Source: a virus. From it: 45,917 bases of DNA. The stretch lies in the IMG/VR virus record IMGVR_UViG_3300037761_000323; one strand, written 5' to 3'. The first letter of the stretch is position 1. Each line of letters starts with the position of its first letter. The notes beneath the pieces were generated by a model that saw only the letters and a list, made by a program, of their open reading frames with translations, was not told where the DNA came from and ran no database searches. Of this stretch, positions 1 through 32,347 are shown piece after piece. The position numbers and the translations under genes were made by a program.

Positions 1-127
1 TTCTGGCTGAGCGTGCGCCCGAGATCGCGGAGCGAGCCCTCGTAGAGCTCGTCCTCGTCCTCGAAGCCGAAGCCCGCGTTGATGCGGCCGCGCCCGACCT
101 GGCTCCCGCGGAGGTCCCGGATGTTCC
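1..127. repeat. Left copy of the 127-bp terminal direct repeat, identical to 45791-45917. Most simply a contig-end overlap of a circular or terminally redundant genome.
   Basis: Letter-by-letter comparison of the first and last 127 bases, ttctggctgagcgtgcgccc...gaggtcccggatgttcc. Confidence 0.95.
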
Positions 128-6747: not shown

Positions 6748-8124
6748 TTAGACCGACTCCGCCGGGATCGACTCCGCCGGCGACATGAAGCCCTCGAGCC
6801 GCCAACAACGCTGCGGGCTCTTGATGCCGATCTCGCCGTGAGCCGTCCCGTAGGCGTAGAAAGCATCCTTACGGCCAGTGGAGTCCGTGACCTGGCGCCA
6901 GAGGCTCCCGGTCGTGTCGTCCCACTGGAACTCATGGAGCAGGAACTTCCGGAAGACGTCCTTCTGGAGCCCGAAGACCAACGTGCTCGGGAGCTTCCTC
7001 GCCGTCCGGAACTCGACGGTGCGCGTGCCACCGAAGAGCATCGTGATCCCCTTCCGCCCAGCCGTGTAGGCCCGAGGGTCGTTGACCACGCGGTCCGCCT
7101 TGATCTCCGTCCACACGGCGTCGAAGGCCTCGTCGCTCATGACGATCATGTCGACCTTGCCGCCGCCGCGGTGGCGCGCCTGACGATCCGTTTGGATCAT
7201 CGCGAACTCGGTCAGGTCCGCGCCCGCGAGGTCCCGCACGTACGAGCGGAACCACAGATGCACGTTCCTGTCGATGTTCTGGAGCGTCTGCACGATGTCC
7301 CCGTCGTCGACGAGACCGAGCAGGCCCATCATGTCCTTTCCGGCGGAATTATCCGCGGCGTCACCCTCGAAGAGGTAGTCGCCATCCACCAGGTCGGCCA
7401 CGCTGTTGAGCTGGAGCGCGTTGTTGTCCCAATCGAGCTGGTCCACGGTGTAGGCCGTGGCGCGCGGAGCAGACCCGTCGATGTTCGGCGACGCCCGGAG
7501 GCGGAGCCCACGACGGAACTGCATCAGCTCGTGATCGAAGCCGGCGACGCCGAGCGTCGACCCGACTACGACCGGATTGGAGATCACGGTCTCGTTCACC
7601 CGTGCCCGGATGCCCGAACCGTCGCCGACGAGCTGACGATCCATTTCGTCGACGAGACCCTCCTTGAAGAGGGGGAACTGCTCGTCAGACCAGGTGAGGA
7701 AGGCAGCCTTGTCCCTCTTGATTTTCTTGAGGACCTCGGCCGTCTCCTCGAGGGAGCCGACGATCTTCTTGAGCGTGATCCGGCTGTTCTCCGCCTTGGC
7801 GCTGTTCGCCTCGGGGATGTAGCCGTTTTCGCCACGAGATCCCCAGGATCCGGGCGATTGGTAGAGCTGGCTCGTCTCGAACCAGCGGCCTTCGGGGCCC
7901 TGTTTGACTTCGCCTTCCGGCATGAAGTCCATGAGCTCCGTGTCATAGACCGTCTCCGAGATCACTGTGTCGTCGAAGACGATCTTCATGAGCTCCGTGT
8001 AGTCCTCGGTCGTGGCCGTGTCCCCGATGAGGAAGGGGAGCGCGAGCAACGCGCTCGGTGCGAACCCGAGCAACGCCGCAACGCACAGTCCGAGGCCCAC
8101 GAAGAGCTTTTGGCGCTGCTTCAT
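6748..8124 (-). CDS. Major capsid protein, 458 aa, carrying an unusual hydrophobic N-terminal leader.
   Basis: ATG at 8124 preceded by GGGAGAAGCATCCCC. It directly follows the scaffold gene, and its size and composition fit an HK97-fold coat protein. I reject the upstream extension of the track ORF to 8289 (Arg/Pro-rich, no RBS). Confidence 0.75.
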   Translation of the reverse strand: MKQRQKLFVGLGLCVAALLGFAPSALLALPFLIGDTATTEDYTELMKIVFDDTVISETVYDTELMDFMPEGEVKQGPEGRWFETSQLYQSPGSWGSRGENGYIPEANSAKAENSRITLKKIVGSLEETAEVLKKIKRDKAAFLTWSDEQFPLFKEGLVDEMDRQLVGDGSGIRARVNETVISNPVVVGSTLGVAGFDHELMQFRRGLRLRASPNIDGSAPRATAYTVDQLDWDNNALQLNSVADLVDGDYLFEGDAADNSAGKDMMGLLGLVDDGDIVQTLQNIDRNVHLWFRSYVRDLAGADLTEFAMIQTDRQARHRGGGKVDMIVMSDEAFDAVWTEIKADRVVNDPRAYTAGRKGITMLFGGTRTVEFRTARKLPSTLVFGLQKDVFRKFLLHEFQWDDTTGSLWRQVTDSTGRKDAFYAYGTAHGEIGIKSPQRCWRLEGFMSPAESIPAESV

Positions 8125-8173
8125 GGGGATGCTTCTCCCAAGGTGTAAGGGCGTGAATGGCACGCCCGCCGGC

Positions 8174-9520
8174 TCAGGGCTTCGGTGCCTTCTCCGGCAA
8201 TCCGAGCGCCCTGGACAGGCGGTTGCGCCGGTCCGTGTACGTCTCGCCCGGGACCTTGGTGAAGCCGGCCGGAGCTGCGGAGCCTGCACCCCCTGGGGTG
8301 GTGGCTGCGCCCTTCCGGCGCCTCATTCGTTCCCGGACGTCCGGCGCCTTGCCCTTCACGGCCGCGGGCTTCTTGCCGGGGGCCTTCGGGGGGGTGACAC
8401 CGGACGCACTACGCTCCCCGTTCTTCGTTGGGGAGATCCCGAAAAACTCGAGCACGCCAAGCTCGCCGAGGAGCTCGGGGACCTTGGCCGGGTCGAGTGT
8501 CGTCTGCTTTGTCGCCTTGAGGTGCGCGTTGAGCTCCGCCGCGGCCTGCATGGAGAACATCTTGGCCTTCTTCGGATCGTAGTCGTCCGGGAGGACCGAG
8601 CGAATCGCCGCGCCGATGTCGCGGATGAGGTCCTGCGTCTTCGCCACTGTCGCGCTCGAGCGCGTGCGCTCCCGCTCGGCCTTGAGCCGCTTGTTCTCGG
8701 CGTCCGTGCGTTGGGTGACCCTCGAATTGGGGTCACGCGCCCAAGTGTTGATCTTGCGGACGAGCTTGTCGAAGTGCTCTTCCTCGAGCTCCAGGAGGAG
8801 CGCCTCGACGACCGAGCTCCGGACCGTGGGGGCGACCGTCTCCATGAGGAAGGCGGCCGGGTCGGCCTCCATCGCCTCGTAGATCCCGTCGAGGTCGGCC
8901 TTGTCCTTCTGCACGTCGGCGATCGCGTCCTCGTACTCACGCCGGTACATCGCCCCGTTTCGGAGCTGATTCAGCCGCTCGACCGCATCCGCGGGGTCGA
9001 TACCAGCCGCCTCGAGCGCCGCGATGTCGAGCGGGAGCTCGAAGTCCTCCTCGCCCGCCTTACGGGCGGGGAGCGAGACGACCACGAAGTCGTCGTCGTC
9101 GCCCCCCGCCTCTCCGGCTGCACCAGCTTCCGCACCTTCCGCCTCGCCGCCGGCACCCTCGCCGGCGGCCTCTCCGGGTAGCTCGTCGCCCGTCTCGACC
9201 CCTTCCTCTTCCTCGCCCGCGGCCGCGGCGGCCGGAGGAGGAGGTGGAGCTCCACCCGCGGCCTTCGCGGCCTCCTCCGTGGCGAGCTCCTCGCGGAGCT
9301 TCGCCATCTTCGCCTCGAACGGCCGGAGCTCCTCGGCCGGCGGCGGCGGCTCACCGCCGCCCTCCCCTCCGCCTTCCCCTTCCCCCCCGCCGGCCCCTGC
9401 GGCGTCGTCGTCCTCGGTGTCACCGACGAGGAGCGGGAGCGCGAGGAGCGACTCCGGGCTCTGACCGAGCACGGCGAGGAGGAGGAGGACAGCACCGGCG
9501 AGGAGCCTATCGAGACGCAT
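8174..9520 (-). CDS. Scaffolding-type protein, 448 aa.
   Basis: Lies between portal and capsid. ATG at 9520 is one nt after the portal TAA. It has a long acidic G/E/A/P low-complexity region, then a helical charged domain and a basic C-terminus. Its N-terminal leader resembles that of the capsid protein. Confidence 0.7.
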   Translation of the reverse strand: MRLDRLLAGAVLLLLAVLGQSPESLLALPLLVGDTEDDDAAGAGGGEGEGGGEGGGEPPPPAEELRPFEAKMAKLREELATEEAAKAAGGAPPPPPAAAAAGEEEEGVETGDELPGEAAGEGAGGEAEGAEAGAAGEAGGDDDDFVVVSLPARKAGEEDFELPLDIAALEAAGIDPADAVERLNQLRNGAMYRREYEDAIADVQKDKADLDGIYEAMEADPAAFLMETVAPTVRSSVVEALLLELEEEHFDKLVRKINTWARDPNSRVTQRTDAENKRLKAERERTRSSATVAKTQDLIRDIGAAIRSVLPDDYDPKKAKMFSMQAAAELNAHLKATKQTTLDPAKVPELLGELGVLEFFGISPTKNGERSASGVTPPKAPGKKPAAVKGKAPDVRERMRRRKGAATTPGGAGSAAPAGFTKVPGETYTDRRNRLSRALGLPEKAPKP

Positions 9521-9521
9521 G

Positions 9522-11807
9522 TTACGCCACCTGTTCGGGGGAAAGCTGTTCGGAACCGGGCTCGAGGAGGCGCACGGCGTTGGCCTCGATCGCGGCGGCC
9601 TGCTGCGCGGCCGCGCCCTGGACCTGGCCCTCGACCTCGAGCTGGCGGCCCGCGGCGAGGAGCTGCGCCTGCTGCTGCGCCAAGAGGAGGCGCTTCCGGT
9701 AGAGCACCATTTCCTGCATGATCGCCGGGTCGATCTTGAGGTACTCGGGGCTCTTGAGGAACCGCTCGAGGACGTGCAGGAAGATCCCGTGATCGTACCA
9801 CTCGAAGATCGGGATCTCCGTCGCCGGAGCGCCCTGGATGAGGCGGCCGACGAACTGCTCCGCGCTCGCCCGGTCGGCTCCGCCCGGCCGCGAGGCGCGG
9901 CCCATGTGCGGGAAGCGGGATAGATCCAGGAATGTGTTGATCGCGGTCGGGGAGACCGGATCGCCCCATACGCCCGCCTGCCAGAAGCGCATCATCCGGT
10001 CCTGACGCTCGCCCCTGCCCTCGGGCAACATCGACTCGATCTCGGGGATCGCGTTGACCGTGCCCTCCTCGAAGAGCTGAGGCCAGACCGTGATCGTCCT
10101 GGCGATGTTGTCCTCGCCGACGACCTGGATCGCCTTCTCCTGATCGAGGAAGAGCGGGTACATCACCTTCCAGTCCTCCGCCATGCGCGCGAGCTCGAGC
10201 ACCATCCGTCGCATCGGTCCCGAGCTCGGCCGATCGGCGTTGAAGCGGAGCTCGCTCACGAGCTCGCCCGAGGCGCTCTTCGTCGGCGTGTTGCCCTGCG
10301 TGCCGGAGATCGAGCCGAGCATGTCGACCTCTTCCGCGAGCCGGTCAGCCGACTCGTAGACCTCGGGACCGAGCCGGCCAGGGTGCACGAACTCGATGAT
10401 CGGCGCCTTCGACTTTGACCTCGATGCGAGGACCTGGAAGCCGGGGACGTTCTTCACGTCGCCGTCCTTGATGCCCGAGTCCCGGTCGATCACCTGGATC
10501 GGGTTCGCCACGAGCGTCGCGTGCTGGATCCCCTGCGCGTGGAGCCGGTTCCGCGTCCTGATCGGTCCGTTGAGCATTTCCTGGCTGCTCGAGCCCTGCG
10601 GCCTGCCCGGGAGGTTGTGGAAGTCGAAGCAGCGGATCGGGCTCGTGTACTTGAACGGCGCCGTGCGCGGCCCGTCCCGGACGCACTTCTTCGCGCCGGT
10701 CACGATCGTCAGCCGCCCGCCGGGCGACTGGCCCGGGATCCGCTGCGTCCCCGGGAACCGGCTCGGCCGCTGCCAAAGCTCGTAGACGCTCACGAACTCC
10801 GTCGACGTCGCCGACTCGAGCGTAGCGCCCCTGCGCTGCTCGGCCGAGCCGAAGAGGCCGGCGCCGTGCAGGAGCCGCCAGATCACGCCCACGTCGTCGC
10901 CGGTCTGCCCACCGCGCACGTCGGGCTCGAGCTCCATGCCGAAGGCCTCGTAGGCCTGGAGCGGCGTCAGGAGCGAGCGCTGCATGTGCCAGGCCTTCTT
11001 GTGCCACGGGATCTGCTGACCCCATTCGCCGCGCACCTCGAGGCACGTCAGGACGTCGACCTCGAGCGCGCCCTCGTAGAAGACGTGCGGCTCGCCGTTC
11101 TCCTCGACCACCTCTCCCCCGTCCTCCTCGAGGAGGCGAGCGCGCGGGTTGCCCTGTTCGTCGAGCGGAACGTTCGGGATCTCGCGCTGGATCGGCATAC
11201 CGTCCGCTCCGAGGATCTCGGTCCCGTCCGCGCGGAGGAGCTTGAGGATCGCCGTGTCGATCGCCGCGATCGCGTCGCCCTGCATCGCGTCGATGCGGCT
11301 CTTGAGGTGGGCCCTGCCCGAGGGGATGAGCCAGGCCGTCAGTCGGTCGAGGACCTCGAGCATCCCGACGTTGTTCCAGGTGTGCTTGAAGAGCGGGTCC
11401 ATCACCTCGGCGAGCTCGGCGTCGATCCGATCGGGCCCGGGCTGCCAGGAGATCACCGGCGGGTTCTCGTTCATCCGCGCCTGCGTCAGGATGAACCAGA
11501 GGAAGAGGCGGTTGAGGACGGGCATGTGCCGCCACCTCTTCTCGTCGTCGTTCAAGTGCTCGGCGAGGTCGACGTAGCGCTGGCGGAGCTCGCTCCAGAC
11601 GATCCAGTGCTGGCCGAGCAGCATCCGGACGTTCTCCTCGACCTGGCGGTCCCGCTGGCGGAGCTTGTCGTCCTGCTCGTGCCAGAGGCCCATCACCCAC
11701 TCGGCCCGGATCGCATCGGCCACGTCGAAGGCGAAGGGATCCTCCCGCATCCGCGGGATGTCTGCGATCCGGGTGAAACGCTGGCCCTTCGCGGTGGCTG
11801 AGCTCAA
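9522..11807 (-). CDS. Portal protein, up to 761 aa.
   Basis: Size and position upstream of scaffold and capsid, with a portal-like N-terminal region (...RWRHMPVLNRLFLWFILTQARMNENPP...). The track start at 11807 is TTG, overlapping the upstream stop (TTGA). An ATG 19 codons downstream (start 11750) is an alternative. Confidence 0.8.
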   Translation of the reverse strand: MSSATAKGQRFTRIADIPRMREDPFAFDVADAIRAEWVMGLWHEQDDKLRQRDRQVEENVRMLLGQHWIVWSELRQRYVDLAEHLNDDEKRWRHMPVLNRLFLWFILTQARMNENPPVISWQPGPDRIDAELAEVMDPLFKHTWNNVGMLEVLDRLTAWLIPSGRAHLKSRIDAMQGDAIAAIDTAILKLLRADGTEILGADGMPIQREIPNVPLDEQGNPRARLLEEDGGEVVEENGEPHVFYEGALEVDVLTCLEVRGEWGQQIPWHKKAWHMQRSLLTPLQAYEAFGMELEPDVRGGQTGDDVGVIWRLLHGAGLFGSAEQRRGATLESATSTEFVSVYELWQRPSRFPGTQRIPGQSPGGRLTIVTGAKKCVRDGPRTAPFKYTSPIRCFDFHNLPGRPQGSSSQEMLNGPIRTRNRLHAQGIQHATLVANPIQVIDRDSGIKDGDVKNVPGFQVLASRSKSKAPIIEFVHPGRLGPEVYESADRLAEEVDMLGSISGTQGNTPTKSASGELVSELRFNADRPSSGPMRRMVLELARMAEDWKVMYPLFLDQEKAIQVVGEDNIARTITVWPQLFEEGTVNAIPEIESMLPEGRGERQDRMMRFWQAGVWGDPVSPTAINTFLDLSRFPHMGRASRPGGADRASAEQFVGRLIQGAPATEIPIFEWYDHGIFLHVLERFLKSPEYLKIDPAIMQEMVLYRKRLLLAQQQAQLLAAGRQLEVEGQVQGAAAQQAAAIEANAVRLLEPGSEQLSPEQVA

Positions 11808-12004
11808 AGGGGCCGGTAGCTCGCGATGTAGACCTCGAAGGCGTCCTTCTTGCCCGGAGGGACGGGGCGCCAGATCGGCTTGGGGAGCTGCGGGGGCGGG
11901 TGATACGTGTGGGCGGCGTGCCCAGCCTCGAGCGCTCGAGCGACCGCGGTGAGGCCGAGGCCTCCGGCCATGCGAAGCAGGAAGCCGCGGCGATTCGTCT
12001 TCAT
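11804..12004 (-). CDS. 66-aa micro-protein with a twin-arginine (Tat) signal peptide.
   Basis: MKTNRRGFLLRMAGGLGLTAVA|RALEAGH... has the RRxFL motif, a hydrophobic h-region and an AVA cleavage-type site. GC3 is about 88 percent by hand count. Its stop overlaps the portal start. The mature part is His/Pro-rich. Confidence 0.6.
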   Translation of the reverse strand: MKTNRRGFLLRMAGGLGLTAVARALEAGHAAHTYHPPPQLPKPIWRPVPPGKKDAFEVYIASYRPL

Positions 12005-12038
12005 GGGCCCGAACGTGTCAGGGCCCGAGCTCAGCCCG

Positions 12039-12278
12039 CTATTCGGAGAACTCCGAGGCCCGTCGCACGAGCACCCACACGAGGACGCGAAGCGCCGGGC
12101 TGAGCTTCGGCTCGAAGTCCGCGGGCAGCTTACGGTTGATCGCGGTGACGTGCGCCTCCGCGGTCCGCCACGAGACGGGCGGGTCGAGCGTGCGCGCGAC
12201 CTCCCGAAGTGAGCGAGCTCCGCCGGCGATCACCTCGAGGACGTCGAGCTCGCGGGGGGTCAGCTCTCTTGAATCCAC
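12039..12278 (-). CDS. LuxR/GerE-type HTH DNA-binding protein, 79 aa, HTH domain only.
   Basis: LTPRELDVLEVIAGGARSLREVARTLDPPVSWRTAEAHVTAINRKL matches the LuxR_C-like HTH pattern. GTG at 12278 is preceded by GGAGGGGGCGG. I reject the track extension to 12353. Confidence 0.7.
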   Translation of the reverse strand: MDSRELTPRELDVLEVIAGGARSLREVARTLDPPVSWRTAEAHVTAINRKLPADFEPKLSPALRVLVWVLVRRASEFSE

Positions 12279-12589
12279 CCGCCCCCTCCACTGTCCGTCC
12301 CGGCCCTGGCAAGGAGCCTGTACCACTCCTGCTCTGCCTGCTGCCGGGAGCATCCGGTCTCGTACATCGTTTGCTCGAGGAACTCCGCCGGCGCCTCGGC
12401 GAGCTCGCCCGGGACGCCGAGCGTCTCCTGATCCTCGGCCAAGCGCACGATCGCCCGCGGCGGCTCGTCGACCTTGAGCACGCCCTCGCGGCGCTGCGCG
12501 TCCTTGCGCCGGCCACGCTCACCGAGCCAGAGCCCGAACGCGAGGCCTGTCATGCCCGCGAGCGCTGTCAACAAAACCTCGGGTGTCAC
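12260..12589 (-). CDS. 109-aa single-pass membrane protein, function unknown.
   Basis: GTG at 12589 overlaps the upstream stop (GTGA). N-terminal helix VLLTALAGMTGLAFGLWL is followed by RGRRKD and then an acidic soluble domain. Confidence 0.6.
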   Translation of the reverse strand: MTPEVLLTALAGMTGLAFGLWLGERGRRKDAQRREGVLKVDEPPRAIVRLAEDQETLGVPGELAEAPAEFLEQTMYETGCSRQQAEQEWYRLLARAGTDSGGGGWIQES

Positions 12590-13221
12590 GAGCGCCTCCG
12601 GATGGGGGTGTCTGAGGCGCGGAGGTCCATCAGCCGGTTCGCCCCGTGGATCACGGCGATCGCTCCCGGCTCCCTGCTCCACCGCGGCTCGAGGAGCTGG
12701 TGCATCTGCCCGTGACTCCGGGCGTAGACGTGCACCTCCGCGGTCGGGTTGTAGATCGCGTAGAACGGGCTCACGCGGCCCTTCTCCTCGTACCGATAGC
12801 GGTGGCGGAAACAGGCGCCGTCCTCGAGGCGCTGCTTGATCGGCTGCCAGCTCCGGAGCTCGGTCAGGCGCGGTCGCTCGTATCCCTGGATCGTGAAGTA
12901 GCTCGCCTCGATCGTGTAGAGGAACGTCGGCCTGATCCGGTCGTCGGAGTCGAGCGTGCTCTGGATGTCGTCGCGTCCAGGCCCGAAGTGCTGGAGGACC
13001 TCGAGCGCGTGCGTCCAGCCGCCGTCCCGCACGATCCGCTCGATCGCCTCGAGGTGCCGCTCGTGAGCTCGCCACGCCCAGGCGATCACGACGTCGGGCT
13101 TGAGGTTCTTCGCCGCGGCCACCATCGCCGGGATACACGTCCGGCGCGCGAGCTCCATCCGAGCGCGGAAGTGCTTGTCGTCGTCGTAGCACTGGCGCGT
13201 GTAGACCGTGTGGAAAATCAC
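12586..13221 (-). CDS. Glycosyltransferase-like protein, 211 aa. It resembles the putative rhamnosyltransferase family, but the family assignment is tentative.
   Basis: GTG at 13221 overlaps the stop of the GT2 gene (GTGA). It begins VIFHTVYTRQCYDDDKHFRARMELARRTCIPAM... Adjacent to and translationally coupled with a GT2 gene. Confidence 0.45.
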   Translation of the reverse strand: MIFHTVYTRQCYDDDKHFRARMELARRTCIPAMVAAAKNLKPDVVIAWAWRAHERHLEAIERIVRDGGWTHALEVLQHFGPGRDDIQSTLDSDDRIRPTFLYTIEASYFTIQGYERPRLTELRSWQPIKQRLEDGACFRHRYRYEEKGRVSPFYAIYNPTAEVHVYARSHGQMHQLLEPRWSREPGAIAVIHGANRLMDLRASDTPIRRRS

Positions 13222-13979
13222 TCGCGGCGCTCGAGCGGAGTGCAGACAGGGTGAACGTGGAGGTCGAGGCCGAGCTTCGTGAGGTGCTTGGCCCGGCCGG
13301 CGAACTGGCGGCGGAGCTCGGAGCGGAAGCCGGTTCGCTCGTCCTGGGTCAGGCTGGCCGGGTGCACGCGGCGAATGTAAAGCGAGCGGTTGATGGCGCG
13401 CACGGGGATCTGGAGCGCCCTCGCCCGGAGGATGAGGTCGTGATCGGCCGCCACGGGCCACGGCCGATAGCCGCCCAAGCGCTGCCAGGCGCCGTGGGCG
13501 ATGATCGCAACGCCTCCCTTGTAGCCTGCCCGCCGGCGGATGATGCGCCCGTCCTCGCGCACCTGGGTACGCCCTCCGCCCGAGATCCCATCCGGTCCGA
13601 CGCCGGCGAGGAGCTCCCTCAGATAGCTCGGCCGCATCACGTCGTCCGCGTCGAAGATCGCGTAGGCCTCGGCCGCCTCGAGCTCGACGAGGCTGTTCCG
13701 CATGATGTAGGGCCCGACGTGCTCCCGGGCGTACCAGTGAGCCCTCCCGGCCTTCGTGAGCGTCCTGGACGTCTCCGGGCAGGCGTCGACGCCGATCCGG
13801 AGCGAGTACTCCCACCCCGGACGAGCCTCCTGGAAGTCGATCGACTCGAGCGCCTTGCCGATCCACTTGCTCGCCCCCCGGGCCGCCATGACGACGGAAC
13901 ACTCGCCCCCCGTGTCCGGAGGCGCCGGCGGGCGACGGACCGAGCCACGGCGGCCGCGGCGCCGGGGAGGGCCCGGCAT
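13218..13979 (-). CDS. Family-2 glycosyltransferase, 253 aa.
   Basis: CSVVMAARGASKWIGKALESIDFQ...AYAIFDADDVMRPSYL shows the GT-A N-terminal strand plus a DxD (DADD) motif. ATG at 13979 overlaps the upstream stop (ATGA). Confidence 0.7.
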   Translation of the reverse strand: MPGPPRRRGRRGSVRRPPAPPDTGGECSVVMAARGASKWIGKALESIDFQEARPGWEYSLRIGVDACPETSRTLTKAGRAHWYAREHVGPYIMRNSLVELEAAEAYAIFDADDVMRPSYLRELLAGVGPDGISGGGRTQVREDGRIIRRRAGYKGGVAIIAHGAWQRLGGYRPWPVAADHDLILRARALQIPVRAINRSLYIRRVHPASLTQDERTGFRSELRRQFAGRAKHLTKLGLDLHVHPVCTPLERRE

Positions 13980-15313: not shown

Positions 15314-15477
15314 CGGTCGGCCCGACCGCGGGGGATGCCCGCCCGGCGGCCCTTGCGCCCCGTGGCTGGCGCGGTCCGCGGCGGCGTGTCGACGCGCTCG
15401 AGCTCCTTGAGCTGTTTGGGCGTCCCGTGCATCCTCGACTTCCTCCCCTTCTTCCCGTACCCGATTCCCTTCGGCAT
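15310..15477 (-). CDS. 55-aa highly basic micro-protein, below the ORF-track size cut-off.
   Basis: My own translation is MPKGIGYGKKGRKSRMHGTPKQLKELERVDTPPRTAPATGRKGRRAGIPRGRADR. Its ATG shares a base with the TerL TAA (TAATG) and its TGA overlaps the next ATG (ATGA). 50 of 55 third codon positions are G or C. Confidence 0.6.
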   Translation of the reverse strand: MPKGIGYGKKGRKSRMHGTPKQLKELERVDTPPRTAPATGRKGRRAGIPRGRADR

Positions 15478-17240
15478 TAGTCGATCCTCTCGATGATGGA
15501 GGGGTTGATCGCCGGGTCTCTCGGCGATGGAGTGTCCCGGATTCTACGGTGCTCGAGCTCGGCCAGCAAAGCCTCCTTGTCCCAGGCGCCGAGCTCCGTC
15601 TCCTCCTCGGGGTGGATCCGCTCGCGCACCCGGTTCCAGAGGAGCACGGAGTCGCCCTTGTCGGGGCTCCGGCCGAGGCGTTTCATGACCTCCGCCTTCT
15701 CCTCGACCTGGATCTTGCCAAGGACGCTCTTCCAGCGGATCGAGCGGAGATCCTCGTGGAGCTCCTGATCGGGCGGGAGCGCGATCCGGTTCATCTGGAG
15801 GTCGAGCGCGAGCCGCCACGCCATCGCCGCGCGCTCGTTCCGGTAGAGGACCTCCTCGCGCACGACCTCGCCCTTCTCGTCGAGCAGCGTCTCGTCGATC
15901 GAGGGCACCGCCAACGAGCCCGGGTTGATCGCCTGCACGTAGATCCCGAGCTCCTTGAGCTTGTCGACCGTGCCGCCGCCGTAGCCGCCGCCGACGTCGA
16001 CGCCGACGTGGCGCTCGTGGATGTCGCGCGTCGTTATCATCACCGCGAGCCGCACGCCGAGCTGCGCGACGTCGGGGCAGGGGAAGGAGATCACCTCGTC
16101 GAGGTGCGCGCCAAGCCCGTCCGCGATCGCCGCCTTGTCGCCGTCCTCCGAGCGCGCGACGTCGACGCCGAGCCCCGGGAAGCCCCACCGAAGGTCCTGA
16201 GCCCGCCAGCGGTCGGCCGCCCGGTCGAGCCAGACCTGGCGGATGAGCGCCTCCTGGTGCTCCGGCGGGCTGATCCCCCGGACGCGCGACTGGTAGTGCC
16301 GATGCTCGACGCCGTAGCGGCGGAGCCGGCGCAGGATCGACGCCCTCGAGACCGCGCCCGGTACGATCATCACGTCGCCCTTGACGTCGCTCCACTCCGG
16401 GTCGCGGGCGTTGTTGCAGACGATGTTCGGGTGATCGAGCGCGCTGATCCGGATGTGGACGGTCGACTCGAGCTCGCAGAACTGGTGCAGCGCGTCGTCC
16501 TGGCTGTCCGGGTTGCCGACGTAGGTGCGGAGGTTGTGGGGCGCCGTGCAGGTATTCTCGAGGCCCTGCGACGCCGCCTGGTGGAACTCCTGCGCCTCCT
16601 CGACGCTGATGTGCATGTGGGGCGCGTGCATCCCCGCGGCGCCGGCGGCGATCTCGGTCGCCGCGCCCACCTCGACGCCCTGACCGAACGCGCCCCACCC
16701 CACGCTGTCGCCCTCGCGGAGCTTGCCGTCCATCCGGATCCGGAGGGCCCCGAGCGTCGCGGAGGGGAAGAGGACCTTGAATCGGGGCCAGAGCTTGCCG
16801 AGCTCCATCCACGAGTACTCGCTGAGCTGGTCCTTCTTCGAGGCGAAGTCGAAGCAGCGCGCGCCCTGCCAGGACGCCAGAAACCACAGCTTCACCAACG
16901 CGAGCCCGAAGCTCTTGCCCGTCCCCGTCCCGCTCTCCACACCGACGTCCTTCCACTCCGCCGTCGCCCGGAACCATGCGGCGAGCGGGTCCGGCGTGCC
17001 GTCCCATATGTGGCCCTCGTACTCCGGGAGCTCGCTCCACACCAGCGTCTCGCGACGGATCCCGAGCTCGGCCGTCATGAAGCCGATCGGGTCGTCCTGG
17101 TAGTGCGCCATCCCGGGCGGCGCCTCGGCGGCCGTCACGATCTCCGCCCCAGCCTTGCGGATGCCCTCGGCCACCATCGAGCGCGGCCGCTGCTCCCACC
17201 ACGCGCCGGCGAGCGGCGCCGAGCTGCTCCGGTCGGTCAC
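15477..17240 (-). CDS. terL: Terminase large subunit.
   Basis: Walker A VESGTGTGKSF and Walker B-like HMHISVEEAQ, followed by a C-terminal nuclease-sized domain. GTG at 17240 overlaps the upstream stop (GTGA). ATG at 17177 is an alternative start. Confidence 0.9.
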   Translation of the reverse strand: MTDRSSSAPLAGAWWEQRPRSMVAEGIRKAGAEIVTAAEAPPGMAHYQDDPIGFMTAELGIRRETLVWSELPEYEGHIWDGTPDPLAAWFRATAEWKDVGVESGTGTGKSFGLALVKLWFLASWQGARCFDFASKKDQLSEYSWMELGKLWPRFKVLFPSATLGALRIRMDGKLREGDSVGWGAFGQGVEVGAATEIAAGAAGMHAPHMHISVEEAQEFHQAASQGLENTCTAPHNLRTYVGNPDSQDDALHQFCELESTVHIRISALDHPNIVCNNARDPEWSDVKGDVMIVPGAVSRASILRRLRRYGVEHRHYQSRVRGISPPEHQEALIRQVWLDRAADRWRAQDLRWGFPGLGVDVARSEDGDKAAIADGLGAHLDEVISFPCPDVAQLGVRLAVMITTRDIHERHVGVDVGGGYGGGTVDKLKELGIYVQAINPGSLAVPSIDETLLDEKGEVVREEVLYRNERAAMAWRLALDLQMNRIALPPDQELHEDLRSIRWKSVLGKIQVEEKAEVMKRLGRSPDKGDSVLLWNRVRERIHPEEETELGAWDKEALLAELEHRRIRDTPSPRDPAINPSIIERID

Positions 17241-17443
17241 AGCTTGAGGCCCTTGTAGACGTAGCGGAAACCGTCCATGATCGGCCGCTCGCGGATGTAG
17301 ACCACATCGCTCGGGCGGAGCGGGGCCTTCACCGCACGGACGCTCGGGATTCCATTCTCCGCCACCCACAGCTCGGACGGAAGAACGCCTCCGAGGGTGA
17401 GCTCCTTCCCGTCGAAGGGCCCGCCGATGAAACGAGCGATCAA
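17237..17443 (-). CDS. 68-aa hypothetical protein.
   Basis: MIARFIGGPFDGKELTL... It is coupled by 4-nt overlaps on both sides. Confidence 0.55.
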   Translation of the reverse strand: MIARFIGGPFDGKELTLGGVLPSELWVAENGIPSVRAVKAPLRPSDVVYIRERPIMDGFRYVYKGLKL

Positions 17444-18891: not shown

Positions 18892-19188
18892 TCAGGGACG
18901 GGAAGCGGGGTCGTGGGCCCGAAGGTGCGCGTGCAGGGGCTCGGGCGGCAAGGCCTCCTCGAGGATCCTCCGCTCACGGGCGTAGTCCTCTTCGATGATC
19001 GCCGCGTGGCGCGGACGGTCGGCCTCCTCCTCCTCCAACTCCCGCCGGCGCTGAGCCGTCGCGACGAAGTAGCGCGTGAGCGCGTACTCGACGATGTGGG
19101 CCAGGAAGCTCGGCCGCTCGAGGTGGAGCGCCTCCGCTTCGGCCGCGAGCTCGTCCGGGAGCTCTATCGCGATCGTGACCGCCTTCAT
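18892..19188 (-). CDS. 98-aa ribbon-helix-helix (CopG/Arc-like) DNA-binding protein. The call is tentative.
   Basis: MKAVTIAIELPDELAAEAEALHLERPSFLAHIVEYALTRYF fits a strand-helix-helix pattern. ATG at 19188 is preceded by GGGAGG and overlaps the upstream stop (ATGA). Confidence 0.5.
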   Translation of the reverse strand: MKAVTIAIELPDELAAEAEALHLERPSFLAHIVEYALTRYFVATAQRRRELEEEEADRPRHAAIIEEDYARERRILEEALPPEPLHAHLRAHDPASRP

Positions 19189-19847
19189 GGGGACCTCCCG
19201 TAGATCATGTTGCGGCCGTCGAGCCGGCGGCCGACGTAGCCGTACGGATCGAGCAGATCGCCGACCATCGCGGCCCGGTCGCCGCCACTCCCGCTCTCGA
19301 CCTCGACGATGAGCGTGGGATGATACCGCTCGATCGTCAACGCCGCCCCGAGGAGGACGAAGGGCTCGTGGCCCTCGACGTCGATCTTGATGAGCGACAC
19401 CCGCCGCCGCGGCGCGAGCCGGTCGATCGTCACGATCTTCGTCGGGCCGCTGGGATCGGCGGCGCGGAGCTTGCCCGTCGAGCAGATCCCCTTCCGCTCG
19501 TCCGTGATCTCCATGGAGCCGGTGCCACGGAAGGCGCCCGCGGCGACGTTCATGACGCGGGCGTGGCCCGTCGTGAATCCGTTGTGCCCGAGGTTCTCGA
19601 TGAGGCGGAGGTAGCCGGAGGGGTTCGGCTCGAGCGCGATCACCTCCCGGGCGCCGGCCTGGAGCGCGAGGATCGTGAAGAGCCCCGTGTACGCGCCGAC
19701 GTCGATCACGGACCCGTCCGGATCCGCCACGATCGCGGCGAGAAAAGCGGCAACCGTCTCGGGCTCGAAGCTGCCCTTGCCTTGGTCGACGAAGAGCGCG
19801 ATCCGGTCCCGCTCGAGCCGGAGCTCGACGCCGTGAACGAGCGTCAC
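19185..19847 (-). CDS. FkbM-family SAM-dependent methyltransferase, 220 aa.
   Basis: VIDVGAYTGLFTILALQAGAREVIALEPNP...SLIKIDVEGHEPFVLLGA...LIVEVE matches the Methyltransf_21/FkbM signature. GTG at 19847 overlaps the upstream stop (GTGA). Confidence 0.85.
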   Translation of the reverse strand: MTLVHGVELRLERDRIALFVDQGKGSFEPETVAAFLAAIVADPDGSVIDVGAYTGLFTILALQAGAREVIALEPNPSGYLRLIENLGHNGFTTGHARVMNVAAGAFRGTGSMEITDERKGICSTGKLRAADPSGPTKIVTIDRLAPRRRVSLIKIDVEGHEPFVLLGAALTIERYHPTLIVEVESGSGGDRAAMVGDLLDPYGYVGRRLDGRNMIYGRSP

Positions 19848-20863
19848 TCCTCCCGCCAGGCGTCGACGTCGATGCAGTACTTCTCGGCCAGCATGATCGC
19901 GGCGATCCGATCGGCCGCCTTCGGAGACACCCGCCCACGGAGGCGGACGTGGACTTCCGTGGCCCCGTCGAGGCGCGTCAGCCGGAAGTCGCCCCACGGG
20001 CCCTCGAGCGTGAGCTCCTCCGTGGCGGCCCCGTCGGTTGGATTCTCTTCGTCCTCCATGAGTCTCGCGATGTGCCTCGGGAGCGCGAGGGTGCCATCGC
20101 CCCACGGGCCGCGGGGCTCTGCCGCTGCCAATGCAGGATGAGGCGCGCTCGGCGACGCATCTTTTTCCGTCCCATCGTCTTCCGGCCCTGGATGCTTACC
20201 CCCCACCGAGGCATCGCTTTCGGGAGAGGACTTGAGTACGAAGACGCCGTGTTCCTGGATGAGCTCTTCCGCGCTCGGCGGTGGGCTCGCTCGAGCCTCG
20301 AACTCCGCGGGTGACATTGGCTCGGTGTCTGGCGGGGTGATCGACTTCATGAGCTGCTCCAGTGTGAGTGTCCCCGTCCAGCCCGCGCGGTGGAGTGCCG
20401 GCCGGATGTGCCCGTACCACGTCTGGCTCATCGTCGAGCCGAAGATGCCCTCCTCCCACCCCTTCGCATAGAGCTCCTCGACGAGCGCGGCCAGCTCCGG
20501 GACCTCGATCCCCCCCAGGTCCGCGCCGTTGATGATCCCGTCGCAGAAGTCCGCCGCGATCGGCTTCCCCGGTTTCCGCCCTCTCTTCGGCGCCGGTCCC
20601 GCTCGCCTCTTCTCGTAGTCCGCCTGACGGTCCTTGAGCGCGTCCCGGATGTAGCCGACGAGACGCTCGATGCGCTCGCTCGAGTATGAGCTGAGCGAGG
20701 CCCGGAGGGCGAGCGCGTCGGAGATCGCCCGCTCCGTCACCCGGAGCCGGTCAGAGCCGAGCCAGAGCTCGGTCGCCATCCGTCCGGCAGTCTGCCGGTC
20801 GTGGGCCTCTTCGTTCCGGGCGAGCGAGGCCTCGCGCTCCGCCGCCAGGTCGATCTCAGACAC
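19844..20863 (-). CDS. 339-aa hypothetical protein.
   Basis: GTG at 20863 overlaps the upstream gene by 8 nt. The N-terminal 61 aa of the track ORF (Ser/Arg-rich) are rejected as non-coding frame. No recognisable domain. Confidence 0.5.
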   Translation of the reverse strand: MSEIDLAAEREASLARNEEAHDRQTAGRMATELWLGSDRLRVTERAISDALALRASLSSYSSERIERLVGYIRDALKDRQADYEKRRAGPAPKRGRKPGKPIAADFCDGIINGADLGGIEVPELAALVEELYAKGWEEGIFGSTMSQTWYGHIRPALHRAGWTGTLTLEQLMKSITPPDTEPMSPAEFEARASPPPSAEELIQEHGVFVLKSSPESDASVGGKHPGPEDDGTEKDASPSAPHPALAAAEPRGPWGDGTLALPRHIARLMEDEENPTDGAATEELTLEGPWGDFRLTRLDGATEVHVRLRGRVSPKAADRIAAIMLAEKYCIDVDAWREE

Positions 20864-24617: not shown

Positions 24618-25090
24618 GCGCCTCGTTCGGTTGGCCCAAGCTCAGCGTCACGCTCCCCGAGCGCTGGAGTCAGCTCTTCCCGCTCGAGTGGGGGATGTGC
24701 GAGTCGTGCGGCGCGGAGGGCGAGCTCTTCACCAAGGAGCTCGTGGTCTGGCAGGAGCAAAGCGACACCGATCGACCGACGCCCGTGGCTGTGGTGCTCT
24801 GTCCGAAGTGCTCCAAGGCGCTCGTGCCCCCGCACCCGCGGCTCTACAGATCGGTTTGGCCGAACGCGCCGCTGCCGGGGGTGATGGAGCTCTGCCGCGG
24901 CTGCCGGAAGAGGGCCGGCTACCGCTGCACCCACCCGGACTTGACGACGAACGGCGGGCCCGGCCTCGAGACCATCTACCCGGCCCCGTCGCGGGCGCAC
25001 TTGAACTACGGCGGCGGCCGCGGCGAGTGGGTACTGCTCTGGAACGGGCCGCCTACGTCATGCGCTGGCCGGCTTCCGCACGACGAGTAG
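24614..25090 (+). CDS. 158-aa Cys-rich (multiple CxxC) protein.
   Basis: CESCG...CPKC...CRGC...C. GTG at 24614 overlaps the upstream stop (GTGA). Confidence 0.5.
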   Translation: MSASFGWPKLSVTLPERWSQLFPLEWGMCESCGAEGELFTKELVVWQEQSDTDRPTPVAVVLCPKCSKALVPPHPRLYRSVWPNAPLPGVMELCRGCRKRAGYRCTHPDLTTNGGPGLETIYPAPSRAHLNYGGGRGEWVLLWNGPPTSCAGRLPHDE

Positions 25091-25603
25091 GCTCGCCGAG
25101 GAGAGCATCCAGTCCGCGCCGGTCGCGAGGAACTCGACGTCTCTCGCCACGCACGAGCCCGGCGCGTGGAGGTCCTCGATCGCGTAGAAGCCTCCGGGCC
25201 GGACGTGCGGCCACAGCGCCTCGAGGCTGACGAGCTGGTCCCAGGCCTTGTGCGATCCGTCGTCGATCACGACGTCGAAGGGCCCGTAGGCGGCCGCGAG
25301 CCGCTCGAGGAGGTCCTGGTCGGCCTGGCGGCCGCGGTAGAGGCGGACGTTGAGCTCGGCGACGTTGGGCAGCGGCCCCTTGTCGACGCCGATGATGATG
25401 GCGTCCGGGAGCCACGCGGCCCACATCCGGACCGAGGCGCCCTTGGCAACGCCGAGCTCCAGGAGGCGGCTCACCTCGAGCGGCCCGAAAAGGTGCTCGT
25501 AGTGCTCGGTGTAGCCCTTCGGTGAGAGCCCGGAGGGGACGGCGGCCGTCCCCTTGTCGGTCCCGAAGCGTGCGGCCAGCGAGCCGAGGGACGGCCGGCT
25601 CAA
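25058..25603 (-). CDS. Class I SAM-dependent methyltransferase, 181 aa.
   Basis: FGTDKG...GYTEHYEHLF...LLELGVAKGASVRMWAAWLPDAIIIGVD...FDVVIDDGSH shows GTDK-type MTase motifs I and post-I. Its 3-prime end overlaps the convergent gene by 33 nt. Confidence 0.7.
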   Translation of the reverse strand: MSRPSLGSLAARFGTDKGTAAVPSGLSPKGYTEHYEHLFGPLEVSRLLELGVAKGASVRMWAAWLPDAIIIGVDKGPLPNVAELNVRLYRGRQADQDLLERLAAAYGPFDVVIDDGSHKAWDQLVSLEALWPHVRPGGFYAIEDLHAPGSCVARDVEFLATGADWMLSSASLLVVRKPASA

Positions 25604-28201: not shown

Positions 28202-29776
28202 TCAGGCCTCCGCCCGGGGGGTTACCGCGTCTGCACTCGTCTTCTTGGCCTTCTTCTTCGCCTTTTTCCGCTTGGCCTTCTTCTTCGCCTTGGCCTTGGG
28301 CTCGGCCGCCGGCGCCACCTTGGCGACGATCTTCTTCGCGTCGATGCCGAACGGCTTGAGGGCCTTCGGGACCTTCGAGGCGGCACTCCAACTGTCGACG
28401 ACGACCTGGGCGAGGACCTGGAAGGCAGCGTAGCGCACCGCGTCCTCGAGCGTCTCTCCGCGCGCCATCGTCTTCGGTAGCCGGTCGCCCCAGCCGGTGC
28501 ACGCCGCGATGATGCCATGGGGCCCGTCCATGAGGGTGAGCGGATCGGCCTCGCTGAGGTTCACGGCCAGCGCCTCGAGGAGCGCCGGCTCGGCCTTCTT
28601 CCAGCGGGCGCGCTCGGCGTCCTCCCGCTTCCGCTGCTCCTCGTACCTCCGCTGCTCGGCCGCGCGGTCGACCTTGGGCGCCGCCTGACCGTTCGCCCGC
28701 TTGGCCGCCTGCTTGATCTCCGCGGCCCAATGGACGGTGCACTTCTTCTTCGCGATGCACACGGGGAACGCCTCGCCGCGGCCGGGCCCCGCCACCACGA
28801 GCCCGAGCACCTGGTGGTCGCACACCTTCGAGACCTTCGACTTGCCACTCCAGGCCTCGACGTCCTCCTTGCCGTCCGCCCGCCGCCAGTGCTCCCGGCC
28901 GATGGTGCGCGTCTCCGGGTCCTTCGCGTCGTCGCTCACCCGATACTCCCGGGTGATGTGCACGACCTTGAGCTCGAGCTCGGTCGCCGCGCGGAGCGCG
29001 AGCTCGGTCTCGGGGAAGAGGTTGGGGAGGTCGATCTCGTCGACCCGGAAGCGGACGTGATCGCTGATCCAGTGGTCGAGCTCCCGCACGCTCACGGCCT
29101 TCCGGGGATGCTCGTCGTCGTCGTCCCGCTCGTCGTCGAGCTCGAGCCCCCACGCCCCCGGATCGGCGAGCTCCGGCATGAAGAGGCCCGTGACCTGACC
29201 CCACCGCGTCTCACCGCCGAGCGCGCGCCGCTGATCGGTGGCGCTCAGCCGGGACAGGAGGATCGCGTGGCCGGCCGTGATCTCGCCGCCGATGAAGACG
29301 TCCCGGAGCTCGGGGACGAGCTCGCGCAGCTTGAGCCGGTCGTACACGTACTTCCTCGAGCGCCCGATCTTGCCCGCGATCTGCTCGACGTCGTAGCCGG
29401 CCCTGAGCATGAGGTCCGCGTAGCCGTTCGCCTCCTCGAGGGGGTGGAGGTCGTCCCGCTGGAGGTTCTCGATCGTCTGGAGCTCCAGGCACTCGACGTC
29501 GGAGAGATCGCGCAGGATGCAGGGAACCTTGTCGATCTGCGCGATGATGGCCGCGCGGAGGCGGCGCTCCCCGACGACGAGCTCGAACCGCTCCCGGAGG
29601 CCACCCTGCACGCTGGCGCTCAGGGCTCGCACCACGATCGGCTCGATCATGCCCTTCGACGCGAGCGAGCGAGCCAGCTCCTCGAGCTTCGCCGAGTCGA
29701 ACGTCTTGCGCGGGTTCGTGGGGCTCGGCTCGATGTCCCGGACCGCAATGACCTGGAACGTGCCGAAGGCGTGCAT
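28202..29776 (-). CDS. ParB/Srx-family protein, 524 aa, with a large C-terminal extension and a Lys/Ala histone-like tail.
   Basis: IEPSPTNPRKTFDSAKLEELARSLASKGMIEPIVVR...ELVVGERRLRAA is the ParB N-terminal box. An HTH region follows (YDVEQIAGKIGRSRKYVYDRLKL). The tail PKAKAKKKAKRKKAKKKAKK is encoded at 28241-28300. Confidence 0.85.
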   Translation of the reverse strand: MHAFGTFQVIAVRDIEPSPTNPRKTFDSAKLEELARSLASKGMIEPIVVRALSASVQGGLRERFELVVGERRLRAAIIAQIDKVPCILRDLSDVECLELQTIENLQRDDLHPLEEANGYADLMLRAGYDVEQIAGKIGRSRKYVYDRLKLRELVPELRDVFIGGEITAGHAILLSRLSATDQRRALGGETRWGQVTGLFMPELADPGAWGLELDDERDDDDEHPRKAVSVRELDHWISDHVRFRVDEIDLPNLFPETELALRAATELELKVVHITREYRVSDDAKDPETRTIGREHWRRADGKEDVEAWSGKSKVSKVCDHQVLGLVVAGPGRGEAFPVCIAKKKCTVHWAAEIKQAAKRANGQAAPKVDRAAEQRRYEEQRKREDAERARWKKAEPALLEALAVNLSEADPLTLMDGPHGIIAACTGWGDRLPKTMARGETLEDAVRYAAFQVLAQVVVDSWSAASKVPKALKPFGIDAKKIVAKVAPAAEPKAKAKKKAKRKKAKKKAKKTSADAVTPRAEA

Positions 29777-30276: not shown

Positions 30277-30583
30277 GCTGTACCCCCTTGAGTGAGTGAT
30301 CCACCGCCAACGAAAAGCACCGGAGCAGAGGCCCCGGAGTCGTCTTTAGGATGAGCATGAGCGACGAGACGAGCCGCCCGTGCTCGATCGCCGTCTCGAT
30401 CGCCGACGCGACGAGGAGCGGGAGCTCCTGCTCCTTGCCGACGAAGGTTGCGAAACTCTTGGTCTCTTCGCCGCTCGTGTCGGCCACGATCGCGATGCCC
30501 ACGGTGCCCTCGAGGATCGCCGCGTGATCCCCGGACCGGACCGTGATCTTGACCGGCTCGCCTCCTGCGATCTCCTCCTTCAT
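30161..30583 (-). CDS. 140-aa hypothetical protein. Its last 38 codons overlap the next gene out of frame.
   Basis: ATG at 30583 overlaps the stop of the annealase gene (ATGA). GC3 collapses after 30276, so the tail is probably run-on. Confidence 0.5.
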   Translation of the reverse strand: MKEEIAGGEPVKITVRSGDHAAILEGTVGIAIVADTSGEETKSFATFVGKEQELPLLVASAIETAIEHGRLVSSLMLILKTTPGPLLRCFSLAVDHSLKGVQHGRAQEGSGPDAGGEAEPGTGGEGTPGDPQEAPPEDRG

Positions 30584-32277: not shown

Positions 32278-32282
32278 CAGAC

Positions 32283-32311
32283 TTGCCCCTTGTCGCGATA
32301 GGTGGTATGGT
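32283..32311 (+). promoter_or_regulatory. Candidate sigma70-type promoter for the plus-strand DUF932 block.
   Basis: TTGCCC (32283-32288), a 17-nt spacer, then TATGGT (32306-32311), about 37 nt upstream of the ATG at 32348 in the divergent gap. This is a pattern match only. Confidence 0.3.
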
Positions 32312-32329
32312 AGGGGTGCAGGCACATAT

Positions 32330-32343
32330 CCCCTCGGAAGGAG
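32330..32343 (+). promoter_or_regulatory. Copy of the leader word CCCCTCGGAAGGAG.
   Basis: Ends 4 nt upstream of the ATG at 32348. Confidence 0.5.
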
Positions 32344-32347
32344 AACG

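Follow-up and report, generated by a model that had tools for sequence, protein, structure and literature searches.

N-terminal pro-peptides are a known kind of extension on phage head proteins. The coat protein pVIII of phage M13 is made as a procoat with a Sec-type leader, and the capsid protein of hepatitis B virus (HBV) gains a signal peptide through an upstream in-frame start that gives the precore/HBeAg form, a second start making the form that assembles. The extension known from phage 80alpha, which has Firmicutes hosts, is 13-14 residues long, non-hydrophobic, mimics the pro-sequence of ribosomal protein L27 and carries a Phe-Ala-Ser-type site that is cut by Prp between Ala and Ser. 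Head processing in T4 is carried out by the phage protease gp21, which acts at L/I-x-E, and the delta domain of HK97 is a soluble coiled coil of ~100 residues which stands in for a separate scaffold and which a phage protease cuts off. Here we describe a leader with the design of a signal peptide on the HK97-fold major capsid (coat) protein encoded by the IMG/VR virus record IMGVR_UViG_3300037761_000323 (the window, that is, the whole stretch of 45,917 nucleotides that was analysed), together with a second leader of the same kind on the scaffolding-type protein encoded next to it. Literature searches for a signal peptide or membrane anchor on an HK97-fold or major capsid protein gave no precedent, nor any report of such a leader being conserved on an HK97-fold coat.

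Links between phage head proteins, host membranes and host proteases have precedents. T4 proheads begin on the inner membrane via gp20, gp40 and YidC (PMC9958956). In phage 80alpha, the host protease Prp processes the N-termini of both the coat and the scaffold, and cleavage of the coat is dispensable (PMC5744158). The leader described here would resemble Sec signal peptides most in its sequence and the 80alpha/Prp extensions most in its logic.

The coat and scaffold leaders

The coat gene (6748-8124, minus strand) encodes a protein of 458 amino acids (aa) with the HK97 fold. It matches phrog_14242 (major head protein; 8e-18) from aa 46 onward, its AlphaFold2 model has a predicted local distance difference test score (pLDDT) of 83.6, and Foldseek gives a probability of 1.0 to phage capsids (9ny2, 7z48, 6j3q and HK97 2fte). 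As is usual for HK97-fold capsid proteins of tailed phages, the gene is encoded together with those of the portal and the large terminase. The only gene between portal and coat (8174-9520, minus strand; 448 aa) encodes an acidic protein whose AlphaFold2 model shows long helices with disordered acidic linkers between them. It gave no match in Pfam, PHROG, PDB sequences or Foldseek, and a profile search found 503 members of its family. Like the P22-like scaffolding proteins it is an elongated helical protein encoded between portal and coat, whereas it has no sequence or structural homology to a characterised scaffold; it is called scaffold here because of this position and architecture.

The coat begins with MKQRQKLFVGLGLCVAALLGFAPSALLALPFLIGDTATT and the scaffold with MRLDRLLAGAVLLLLAVLGQSPESLLALPLLVGDTEDD, both exactly as quoted in a first-pass annotation of this DNA. 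The two N-termini have a common layout made of a basic tip, a hydrophobic core of 14-15 residues and the block LLALPxLxGDT. In the coat, the leader covers aa 1-35 (8020-8124) and is delineated by homologue conservation, position statistics, substitution rates and the structural model. It consists of the n-region MKQRQK (8107-8124), the h-region L7-F21 (8062-8106), the c-region A22-A28 (8041-8061) and a hydrophobic tail L29-D35 (8020-8040), with the shared block reading LLALPFLIGDT (aa 26-36; 8017-8049). In the same way, the scaffold leader (aa 1-34; 9419-9520) is made of the n-region MRLDR (9506-9520), the h-region L6-G19 (9464-9505) and the c-region Q20-A27 (9440-9463), with the block LLALPLLVGDT at aa 25-35 (9416-9448). 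All these features lie on the minus strand, as does an acidic, Gly/Pro-rich linker of low complexity (aa 35-64; 9329-9418) which, according to the alignment, runs from the scaffold leader to the first conserved helix. AlphaFold2 gives pLDDT values below 50 to scaffold residues 27-63. The layout of basic tip, hydrophobic run and block was already recognised in the first-pass annotation and holds; its hydrophobic run of 15-20 residues proved too long, since the core measures 14-15 residues and gives way to a polar turn that contains Pro.

The pattern L[LIVMF]A[LIVMF]P.[LIVMF].G[DE] occurs at two places only in the six-frame translation of the whole window, namely 8017-8049 and 9416-9448. At the DNA level the block forms a direct repeat of 34 nucleotides (nt) with 82% identity (8018-8051 versus 9417-9450), the differences falling mainly at third codon positions. 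The 4 synonymous and 2 conservative codon differences counted earlier are exact on the two 33-nt strings. Local alignment of the two leaders (38-39 residues) scored 79, compared with 22.6 +/- 4.4 for 20000 composition-preserving shuffles (z = 12.8), none of which reached 79. Judged by this alignment, the coat and scaffold leaders are homologous.

Both starts that had been taken as real stand up to inspection. A Shine-Dalgarno (SD)-like sequence, GGGAGAAG (8132-8139, minus strand), lies 7 nt upstream of the coat ATG, and the scaffold ATG lies 1 nt past the portal stop (TAAcATG), to which it is coupled. The G+C content at third codon positions (GC3) is 0.83 in the scaffold leader and ~0.89 in the coat leader by direct codon count, and Rfam gave no match over the leader region.

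Anatomy of the leader

Position statistics were taken from 86 leaders of the coat family aligned on the conserved Pro of LLALP. Position -2 from this Pro, which corresponds to site -1 of a putative cleavage site, is A, G or S in 65 of the 86 leaders, and position -3 (site -2) is a bulky L, F or Y in 48. At position -4 (site -3), L, A or V is found in 70 leaders, Leu alone accounting for 33, and Pro occupies position -7 (site -6) in 36. Many homologues have canonical A-x-A-type strings at this site, for instance AHA, ALA, AFA, ATA and VSA. Upstream, 97% of 105 leaders have an n-region with a net charge of +1 or more, and in 88% it reaches +2 or more; in the window the positive residues are K2, R4 and K6 in the coat and R2 and R5 in the scaffold. 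The h-regions, of 15 aa in the coat and 14 aa in the scaffold, are within the range of signal peptides (~7-15).

By this residue pattern, the leader appears to share the n-h-c build of Sec signal peptides that signal peptidase I cuts, and would form a pro-peptide of ~35 residues. The predicted cuts are between A28 and L29 in the coat and between A27 and L28 in the scaffold. The likeness to Sec signal peptides covers the basic n-region and the 14-15-residue h-region and would extend to the c-region, with a helix-breaking Pro near -6, a bulky residue at -2 and a small residue at -1. On the contrary, two features fit a plain secretory signal poorly: Leu, which is tolerated without being preferred there, is common at -3, and the 5-7 residues past the predicted cut are hydrophobic throughout the family.

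The description of the leader as transmembrane-like needs to be restricted. Insertion energies were summed on a scale that is reportedly that of Hessa et al. 2005, the values being approximate. The sum over 15 residues is -1.7 for the coat and -0.3 for the scaffold, and the sum over 19 residues is +0.5 for the coat, which is marginal, and +5.0 for the scaffold, which is unfavourable; the family medians are -1.6 for the best 15-residue and +0.9 for the 19-residue segment. The AlphaFold2 model of the coat shows a helix at residues 3-18 and then a flexible arm. These values point to a leader that is signal-peptide-like, above all in the scaffold, and whose predicted anatomy is not that of a stable transmembrane anchor or full transmembrane helix.

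Other leader types were considered by inspection and rejected, their defining residues being absent or unconserved; these were the lipobox, twin-arginine translocation (Tat), prepilin-type and double-glycine leaders. The lipobox [LVI][ASTVI][GAS]C does not occur in either leader: the LGLC of the coat has Leu at -1 and a Cys that is unconserved in homologues, and the scaffold leader has no Cys. Similarly, the Tat motif S/T-R-R-x-F-L-K is missing, neither the coat nor the scaffold leader having an RR pair.

Conservation, translation and loss of the coat leader

In a set of 120 coat homologues ranging from 99% down to 30% identity, a leader of the same design was found in 105, down to ~33% identity, which bears out the leader proposed for the coat in the first-pass annotation; the finding that would have refuted it, a leader conserved in no homologue, was not made. 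The family design comprises a basic tip, a hydrophobic core, a Pro/Gly turn, a short second hydrophobic stretch and the junction G-[ADS]-T-x-T-T, after which comes a conserved D-x-x-E-[LA]-[ML]-K-I-x-F-[DE]-D. The n-h-c pattern and the junction are conserved widely; the exact LLALPxLxGDT block is not kept beyond close relatives and cannot stand as the conserved motif that it had been taken for. Almost every homologue has a Thr-rich mature N-terminus (TATT, TTTTT), which corresponds here to aa 36-45 (7990-8019, minus strand).

Of 25 related loci checked, ~20 have an SD-like or G-rich site ahead of the leader ATG. In the four closest comparisons, the ratio of nonsynonymous to synonymous substitution rates (dN/dS) is 0.19-0.39 for the coat leader and 0.13-0.22 for the mature domain. 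Purifying selection, SD sites and conservation in homologues together show that the coat leader is translated and selected as a protein and is no annotation artefact. The earlier view that selection acts on the protein rather than on an RNA element is therefore upheld, the dN/dS of the coat leader being in line with the high GC3 and the lack of an Rfam match in the leader region. The leader evolves faster than the shell domain, a behaviour that is usual for a pro-peptide outside the final structure.

The 15 leaderless homologues begin with M-[AS]-T-T-T-T at or close to the junction. In a neighbour-joining tree of the mature domain, a leaderless clade is basal and at least three later losses occur inside leader-bearing clades; the more distant metagenomic coat relatives examined (23-28% identity) are leaderless. 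By this tree, the leader arose at the base of a clade of ~45-kb phages, was kept in most descendants and was lost at least three times. The portal-scaffold-coat module occurs in the same order and with the same gene sizes with and without a coat leader, and the mature coat fold does not depend on it. Two factors that might have determined its presence were rejected. Host phylum does not, leaderless relatives being found in Gemmatimonadota genome bins as well (L085 and L086), and the unchanged order and gene sizes of the module speak against an extra gene that compensates in leaderless phages.

Of the 105 leaders, 33 have a Met no more than 5 residues upstream of the junction, about twice the ~15% expected from a Met frequency of 3.2% in the leader body. 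Some relatives might thus make a long and a short coat isoform. In the window the corresponding codons are ATC GGG GAC, with no in-frame start at the junction, and since the junction codon is ATC no short coat isoform is possible in this phage.

The scaffold leader is a rare copy

The first-pass annotation had treated the leader as common to scaffold and capsid. This does not hold for the family, where an exhaustive profile search found the scaffold leader absent from 147 of 149 scaffold-family representatives. A full scaffold leader was observed only in the window, in L005 (P0130) and in L094 (P0122). The scaffold of L095 (P0123; 5637-6944) has only a truncated hydrophobic N-terminus of 14 residues, MLRFLQTLGIALLL, which is directly followed by the acidic linker and is apparently a decaying copy of the scaffold leader. 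The leader is absent from all other scaffolds examined in ~40 related loci, including genomes whose coat is 75-86% identical; for example, the genome of P0003/P0124 has a coat that is 86% identical to that of the window and a scaffold that is still leaderless.

In all four genomes with a complete or truncated scaffold leader (the window, L005, L094 and L095), the scaffold ATG lies 0-5 nt past the portal stop. Leaderless scaffold genes also start a few bases past it (3 nt in L001), and this similar spacing indicates that the segment was added in frame at the extreme 5' end of the scaffold gene. The scaffold leaders resemble each other in the h-region (LLAG.V.L), which fits a single ancestral copy, and their c-region and junction are like those of the coat leaders. 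Scaffold and coat leaders of one genome (identities of 17, 20 and 19) are no more alike than those of different genomes (15-22); concerted evolution of the two leaders was rejected on this ground, and gene conversion or co-selection is not supported.

The rarity of the scaffold leader indicates that the coat leader was copied onto the scaffold recently. Most simply, this would have happened once, in an ancestor shared by a small subclade, after which the copies diverged and one of them decayed. The near-identity of the LLALPxLxGDT block in the two proteins is then explained by the coat leader having been copied in frame onto the scaffold.

Proposed membrane targeting and processing

Scans of essentially all open reading frames (ORFs) of the complete genome against Pfam and PHROG detected no protease family. 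The scaffold has no protease signature, and a protease hidden in it was rejected, its model being all-helical and without a PDB sequence or Foldseek match. The earlier remark that no prohead protease lies between portal and capsid is thus correct, the scaffold gene being the only one there, and none was detected genome-wide either. The accompanying analogy with the T4 capsid-targeting sequence has to be abandoned, as there is neither a prohead protease nor an L/I-x-E at the leader junctions.

The partners of the coat give another constraint. A hydrophobicity scan showed that the portal (maximum 0.92) and the large terminase have no hydrophobic N-terminus, and the endolysin has none either. As portal, terminase and most scaffolds are leaderless, head assembly must be cytoplasmic, and with the DNA and nearly all scaffolds also in the cytoplasm the productive pool of coat must stay on the cytoplasmic side. 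Here lies the difference from the M13 procoat and from Sec signals in general: the cargo is a shell protein of ~420 residues with the HK97 fold, which must meet cytoplasmic portal, terminase and DNA. Export of the coat seems incompatible with assembly.

The reading that we favour, tentatively, is that the leader would be an accessory pro-peptide by which coat subunits are targeted to the inner membrane and which is removed by a host peptidase. It combines two of the roles listed in the first-pass annotation, the membrane tether and the host protease. New coat subunits would be brought by it to the cytoplasmic membrane and, in this phage, scaffold subunits would be brought there as well, on a flexible acidic linker. 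Such a concentration of subunits on a surface could help or time the nucleation of procapsids. The bulk of the protein would remain on the cytoplasmic side, since portal, terminase and most scaffolds carry no signal. The leader would then be cut off by a host peptidase, which is proposed because no phage protease is detectable. Candidates may be signal peptidase I, acting between A28 and L29 and followed by further trimming, or an intramembrane or cytoplasmic protease acting near the junction, between G-[ADS] and T. The mature N-terminus would come to lie at the Thr-rich junction, where the leaderless homologues begin. Moreover, the scaffold gained its leader together with a flexible acidic linker of ~30 residues, which fits co-localisation better than a pure cleavage tag.

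Compared with the 80alpha extension, the leader is longer (~35 residues), hydrophobic and unrelated in sequence, the Prp-type motif is not found in it, and its scaffold copy is rare. The likeness resides in the presence of N-terminal extensions on coat and scaffold, in the lack of a phage protease and in processing by a host enzyme, which is demonstrated for 80alpha and proposed here; the dispensable coat cleavage in 80alpha (PMC5744158) also parallels the repeated loss of the leader. With T4 the likeness is that head assembly is tied to the inner membrane, as established for T4 (PMC9958956) and proposed here, and that N-terminal peptides are, or here would be, removed in maturation. The membrane-bound component in T4 is nevertheless the portal and not the coat.

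Several points weigh against membrane targeting with a cytoplasmic coat body. With a basic n-region and an early mature region that is acidic, the positive-inside rule predicts an N-in/C-out orientation, that is, export of the coat body. The second hydrophobic arm measures ~6-10 residues in this clade and is too short for a returning hairpin span. As a predicted substrate the junction region is imperfect, Leu at -3 being suboptimal for signal peptidase I and the Asp of the junction being no site for this enzyme. Finally, the benefit of the leader must be modest, since it was lost repeatedly and its scaffold copy decayed in L095.

A related possibility, which we regard as rather unlikely, is that heads are nucleated on the bilayer itself. 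The coat, and here also the scaffold, would first be inserted into the inner membrane through a Sec/YidC-type leader and would polymerise there in two dimensions, until a host membrane peptidase set it free into the cytoplasm. The leaders might also hold a lipid membrane inside the head, which would be unlikely, given that 45.8 kb of DNA and a coat of ~420 residues correspond to a full T=7 head of P22 size, in which there is no room for a bilayer.

Alternative explanations

Genuine secretion would take the anatomy of the leader at face value. Some or all of the coat, and here also the scaffold, would be exported to the periplasm by a Sec signal peptide, cut by signal peptidase I between A28 and L29, and serve a role outside assembly such as a decoy, exclusion of other phages, perturbation of the envelope or timing of lysis, with a logic like that of HBV precore/HBeAg. 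The n-h-c anatomy is that of a textbook signal, with a small-bulky-small pattern before the conserved Pro, and the acidic early mature region is compatible with export. The Met found near the junction in 33 of 105 leaders could allow some relatives to make a long exported and a short assembling form. Export signals are also not foreign to the module, as a conserved small protein with a Tat signal is encoded just upstream of the portal in three genomes. Yet in this phage every coat molecule would be leader-bearing, as the window offers no in-frame start there, and no head could assemble if all of them were exported. Signals are missing from the portal, the terminase and nearly all scaffolds, the hydrophobic stretch past the predicted cut is conserved although a purely secretory signal does not need one, and it is hard to see what exporting a scaffolding protein would achieve. 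The HBV case itself differs in virus realm and in capsid fold, which are unrelated, and in having the second start that the window lacks at the junction. Secretion is for these reasons unlikely.

A non-membrane assembly domain is unlikely too. The N-terminus would point into the procapsid and act as a short intramolecular scaffold or scaffold-binding arm, similar to a miniature HK97 delta domain or to the P22 coat N-arm, by binding the acidic scaffold or by clustering into a hydrophobic core. The N-arm of HK97-fold coat proteins is known to face the interior, the leader is helical at residues 3-18 in the model with a flexible arm after it, and its basic tip would suit a strongly acidic scaffold; a leader-bearing scaffold could join the common hydrophobic core. 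The HK97 delta domain offers a parallel as an N-terminal helical extension of an HK97-fold coat, located in the procapsid interior and dispensable after assembly. It is soluble, ~100 residues long and made by a phage that needs no separate scaffold, whereas the ~35-residue leader is hydrophobic, coexists with a separate scaffold gene and has no protease found for it, and so falls outside the delta-domain class. Moreover, neither the type of scaffold nor the order of the module differs in leaderless relatives. An exposed hydrophobic helix of 14-15 residues with a basic tip is known as a target of the signal recognition particle (SRP) or SecA, so that capture or aggregation would be expected before assembly, and an assembly domain gives no rationale for Pro at -6, a small residue at -1 and a bulky one at -2.

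The first-pass annotation had put forward a shared cleavage or capsid-targeting tag. On this reading LLALPxLxGDT would serve one protease or prohead targeting, coat and scaffold would share it as they do in T4 (capsid-targeting sequence) or 80alpha (Prp), and membranes would have no role. The coat and scaffold of this phage have almost the same block, leaderless homologues begin where the G-[ADS]-T junction lies, and 80alpha shows that a host protease can process both coat and scaffold. However, the tag is missing from 147 of 149 scaffold representatives, its exact motif is not conserved past close relatives, and leader pairs of one genome do not co-vary more than pairs taken from different genomes. 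It would also leave the basic tip and hydrophobic core, which are the most conserved properties, unexplained, and the genome has no prohead protease and the leader no L/I-x-E. This idea is improbable.

Finally, it is very improbable that the leaders are an artefact, with true starts downstream (the Met of MKIVFDD in the coat and MAKLREEL in the scaffold) and an upstream likeness due to a repeated non-coding DNA or RNA element: one public gene call for a 100%-identical scaffold (P0121) does start at MAKLREEL, on a contig of only 1931 bp, and the PHROG homology of the coat starts at aa 46, but downstream starts are rejected by the conservation of the leader pattern in 105 homologues, by a leader dN/dS below 0.4 with GC3 of 0.83 in the scaffold and ~0.89 in the coat, by the SD sites before the leader ATG, by the coupling of the scaffold ATG to the portal stop in four genomes and by leaderless homologues that start 10-12 residues upstream of the MKI Met, which is thus not the ancestral start, and an RNA or DNA element is rejected by the predominance of third-position differences in the 34-nt repeat and by the lack of an Rfam match.

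Genome context and relatives

The first and last 127 bases of the window (1-127 and 45791-45917) are identical. This exact terminal overlap indicates a complete, circularly assembled genome of ~45,790 bp (~45.8 kb); the G+C content of the window is 69%. Upstream of the scaffold on the minus strand are the genes for a P22-like portal protein (9522-11807; 761 aa; PF16510 and phrog_156) and the large terminase (15477-17369; phrog_2). Elsewhere are found an endolysin without signal sequence (31744-32325; phrog_465), ParB (28202-29776), Rad52 (30580-31674), a DUF932 protein (32264-33484, plus strand) and methyltransferases (19185-20105 and 25058-25603). A polyvalent protein of 2906 aa (35529-44249, minus strand) contains a GGDEF diguanylate-cyclase domain (aa 460-594) and LPD38 (aa 2598-2762), and part of it weakly matches a PHROG annotated as DNA methyltransferase. 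The content in ParB, Rad52, endolysin and DUF932 would fit a temperate or plasmid-like lifestyle.

Several relatives were found in genome bins of Gemmatimonadota, the putative hosts, and L083, which lies inside a Gemmatimonadales contig of 1.18 Mb, is read as a prophage. The nearest isolated phages, from Arthrobacter and Microbacterium, are only 23-25% identical, and none closer is in culture.

The region between terminase and portal was also inspected. An ORF of 66 aa (11804-12004, minus strand) starts with MKTNRRGFLLRMAGGLGLTAVARALEA, a Tat signal-like N-terminus; its stop overlaps the TTG start of the portal (TTGA), and GC3 in its frame is 0.84 over 11851-12000. Comparable small proteins with an RR signal precede the portal in L095 (beginning with MKRRAFLHRIAGALGL) and in L001 (beginning with MRLTRRRFLAAIAAIPLAG), and are not present in most other relatives. 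The portal frame itself is open for ~70 codons upstream of its first start (TTG at 11807), spanning 9522-12017 on the minus strand, and GC3 indicates that another frame is coding there. Further upstream lies a cluster of small genes (12039-13889, minus strand) composed of a LuxR/GerE helix-turn-helix protein (12039-12353), a 109-aa protein with a hydrophobic segment at its N-terminus (12260-12589) and two unannotated ORFs of ~210-220 aa (12586-13221 and 13218-13889). A LuxR-type gene before the portal was also observed in L001, L002, L005, L081, L083 and L095.

Significance for phage head assembly

The coat of a tailed phage is regarded as a soluble, cytoplasmic protein, and a leader of this design on an HK97-fold coat in more than 100 lineages contradicts this view. 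It creates a paradox in which the sequence signals export while the biology demands the cytoplasm. For practical purposes, automated gene calling and annotation may cut such coat proteins short or place them wrongly among secreted or membrane proteins, and the natural pairs of leader-bearing and leaderless phages are ready-made experimental controls. If the leader were a working export signal, it would be the first counterpart in a bacterial virus of the HBV precore/HBeAg strategy. If heads were nucleated on the bilayer, a tailed phage would be using the secretion-targeting machinery as an assembly platform. Should the leader instead act as the membrane tether that we favour, it would represent a new route of capsid nucleation and, after 80alpha, the second case in which head maturation is given to a host peptidase.

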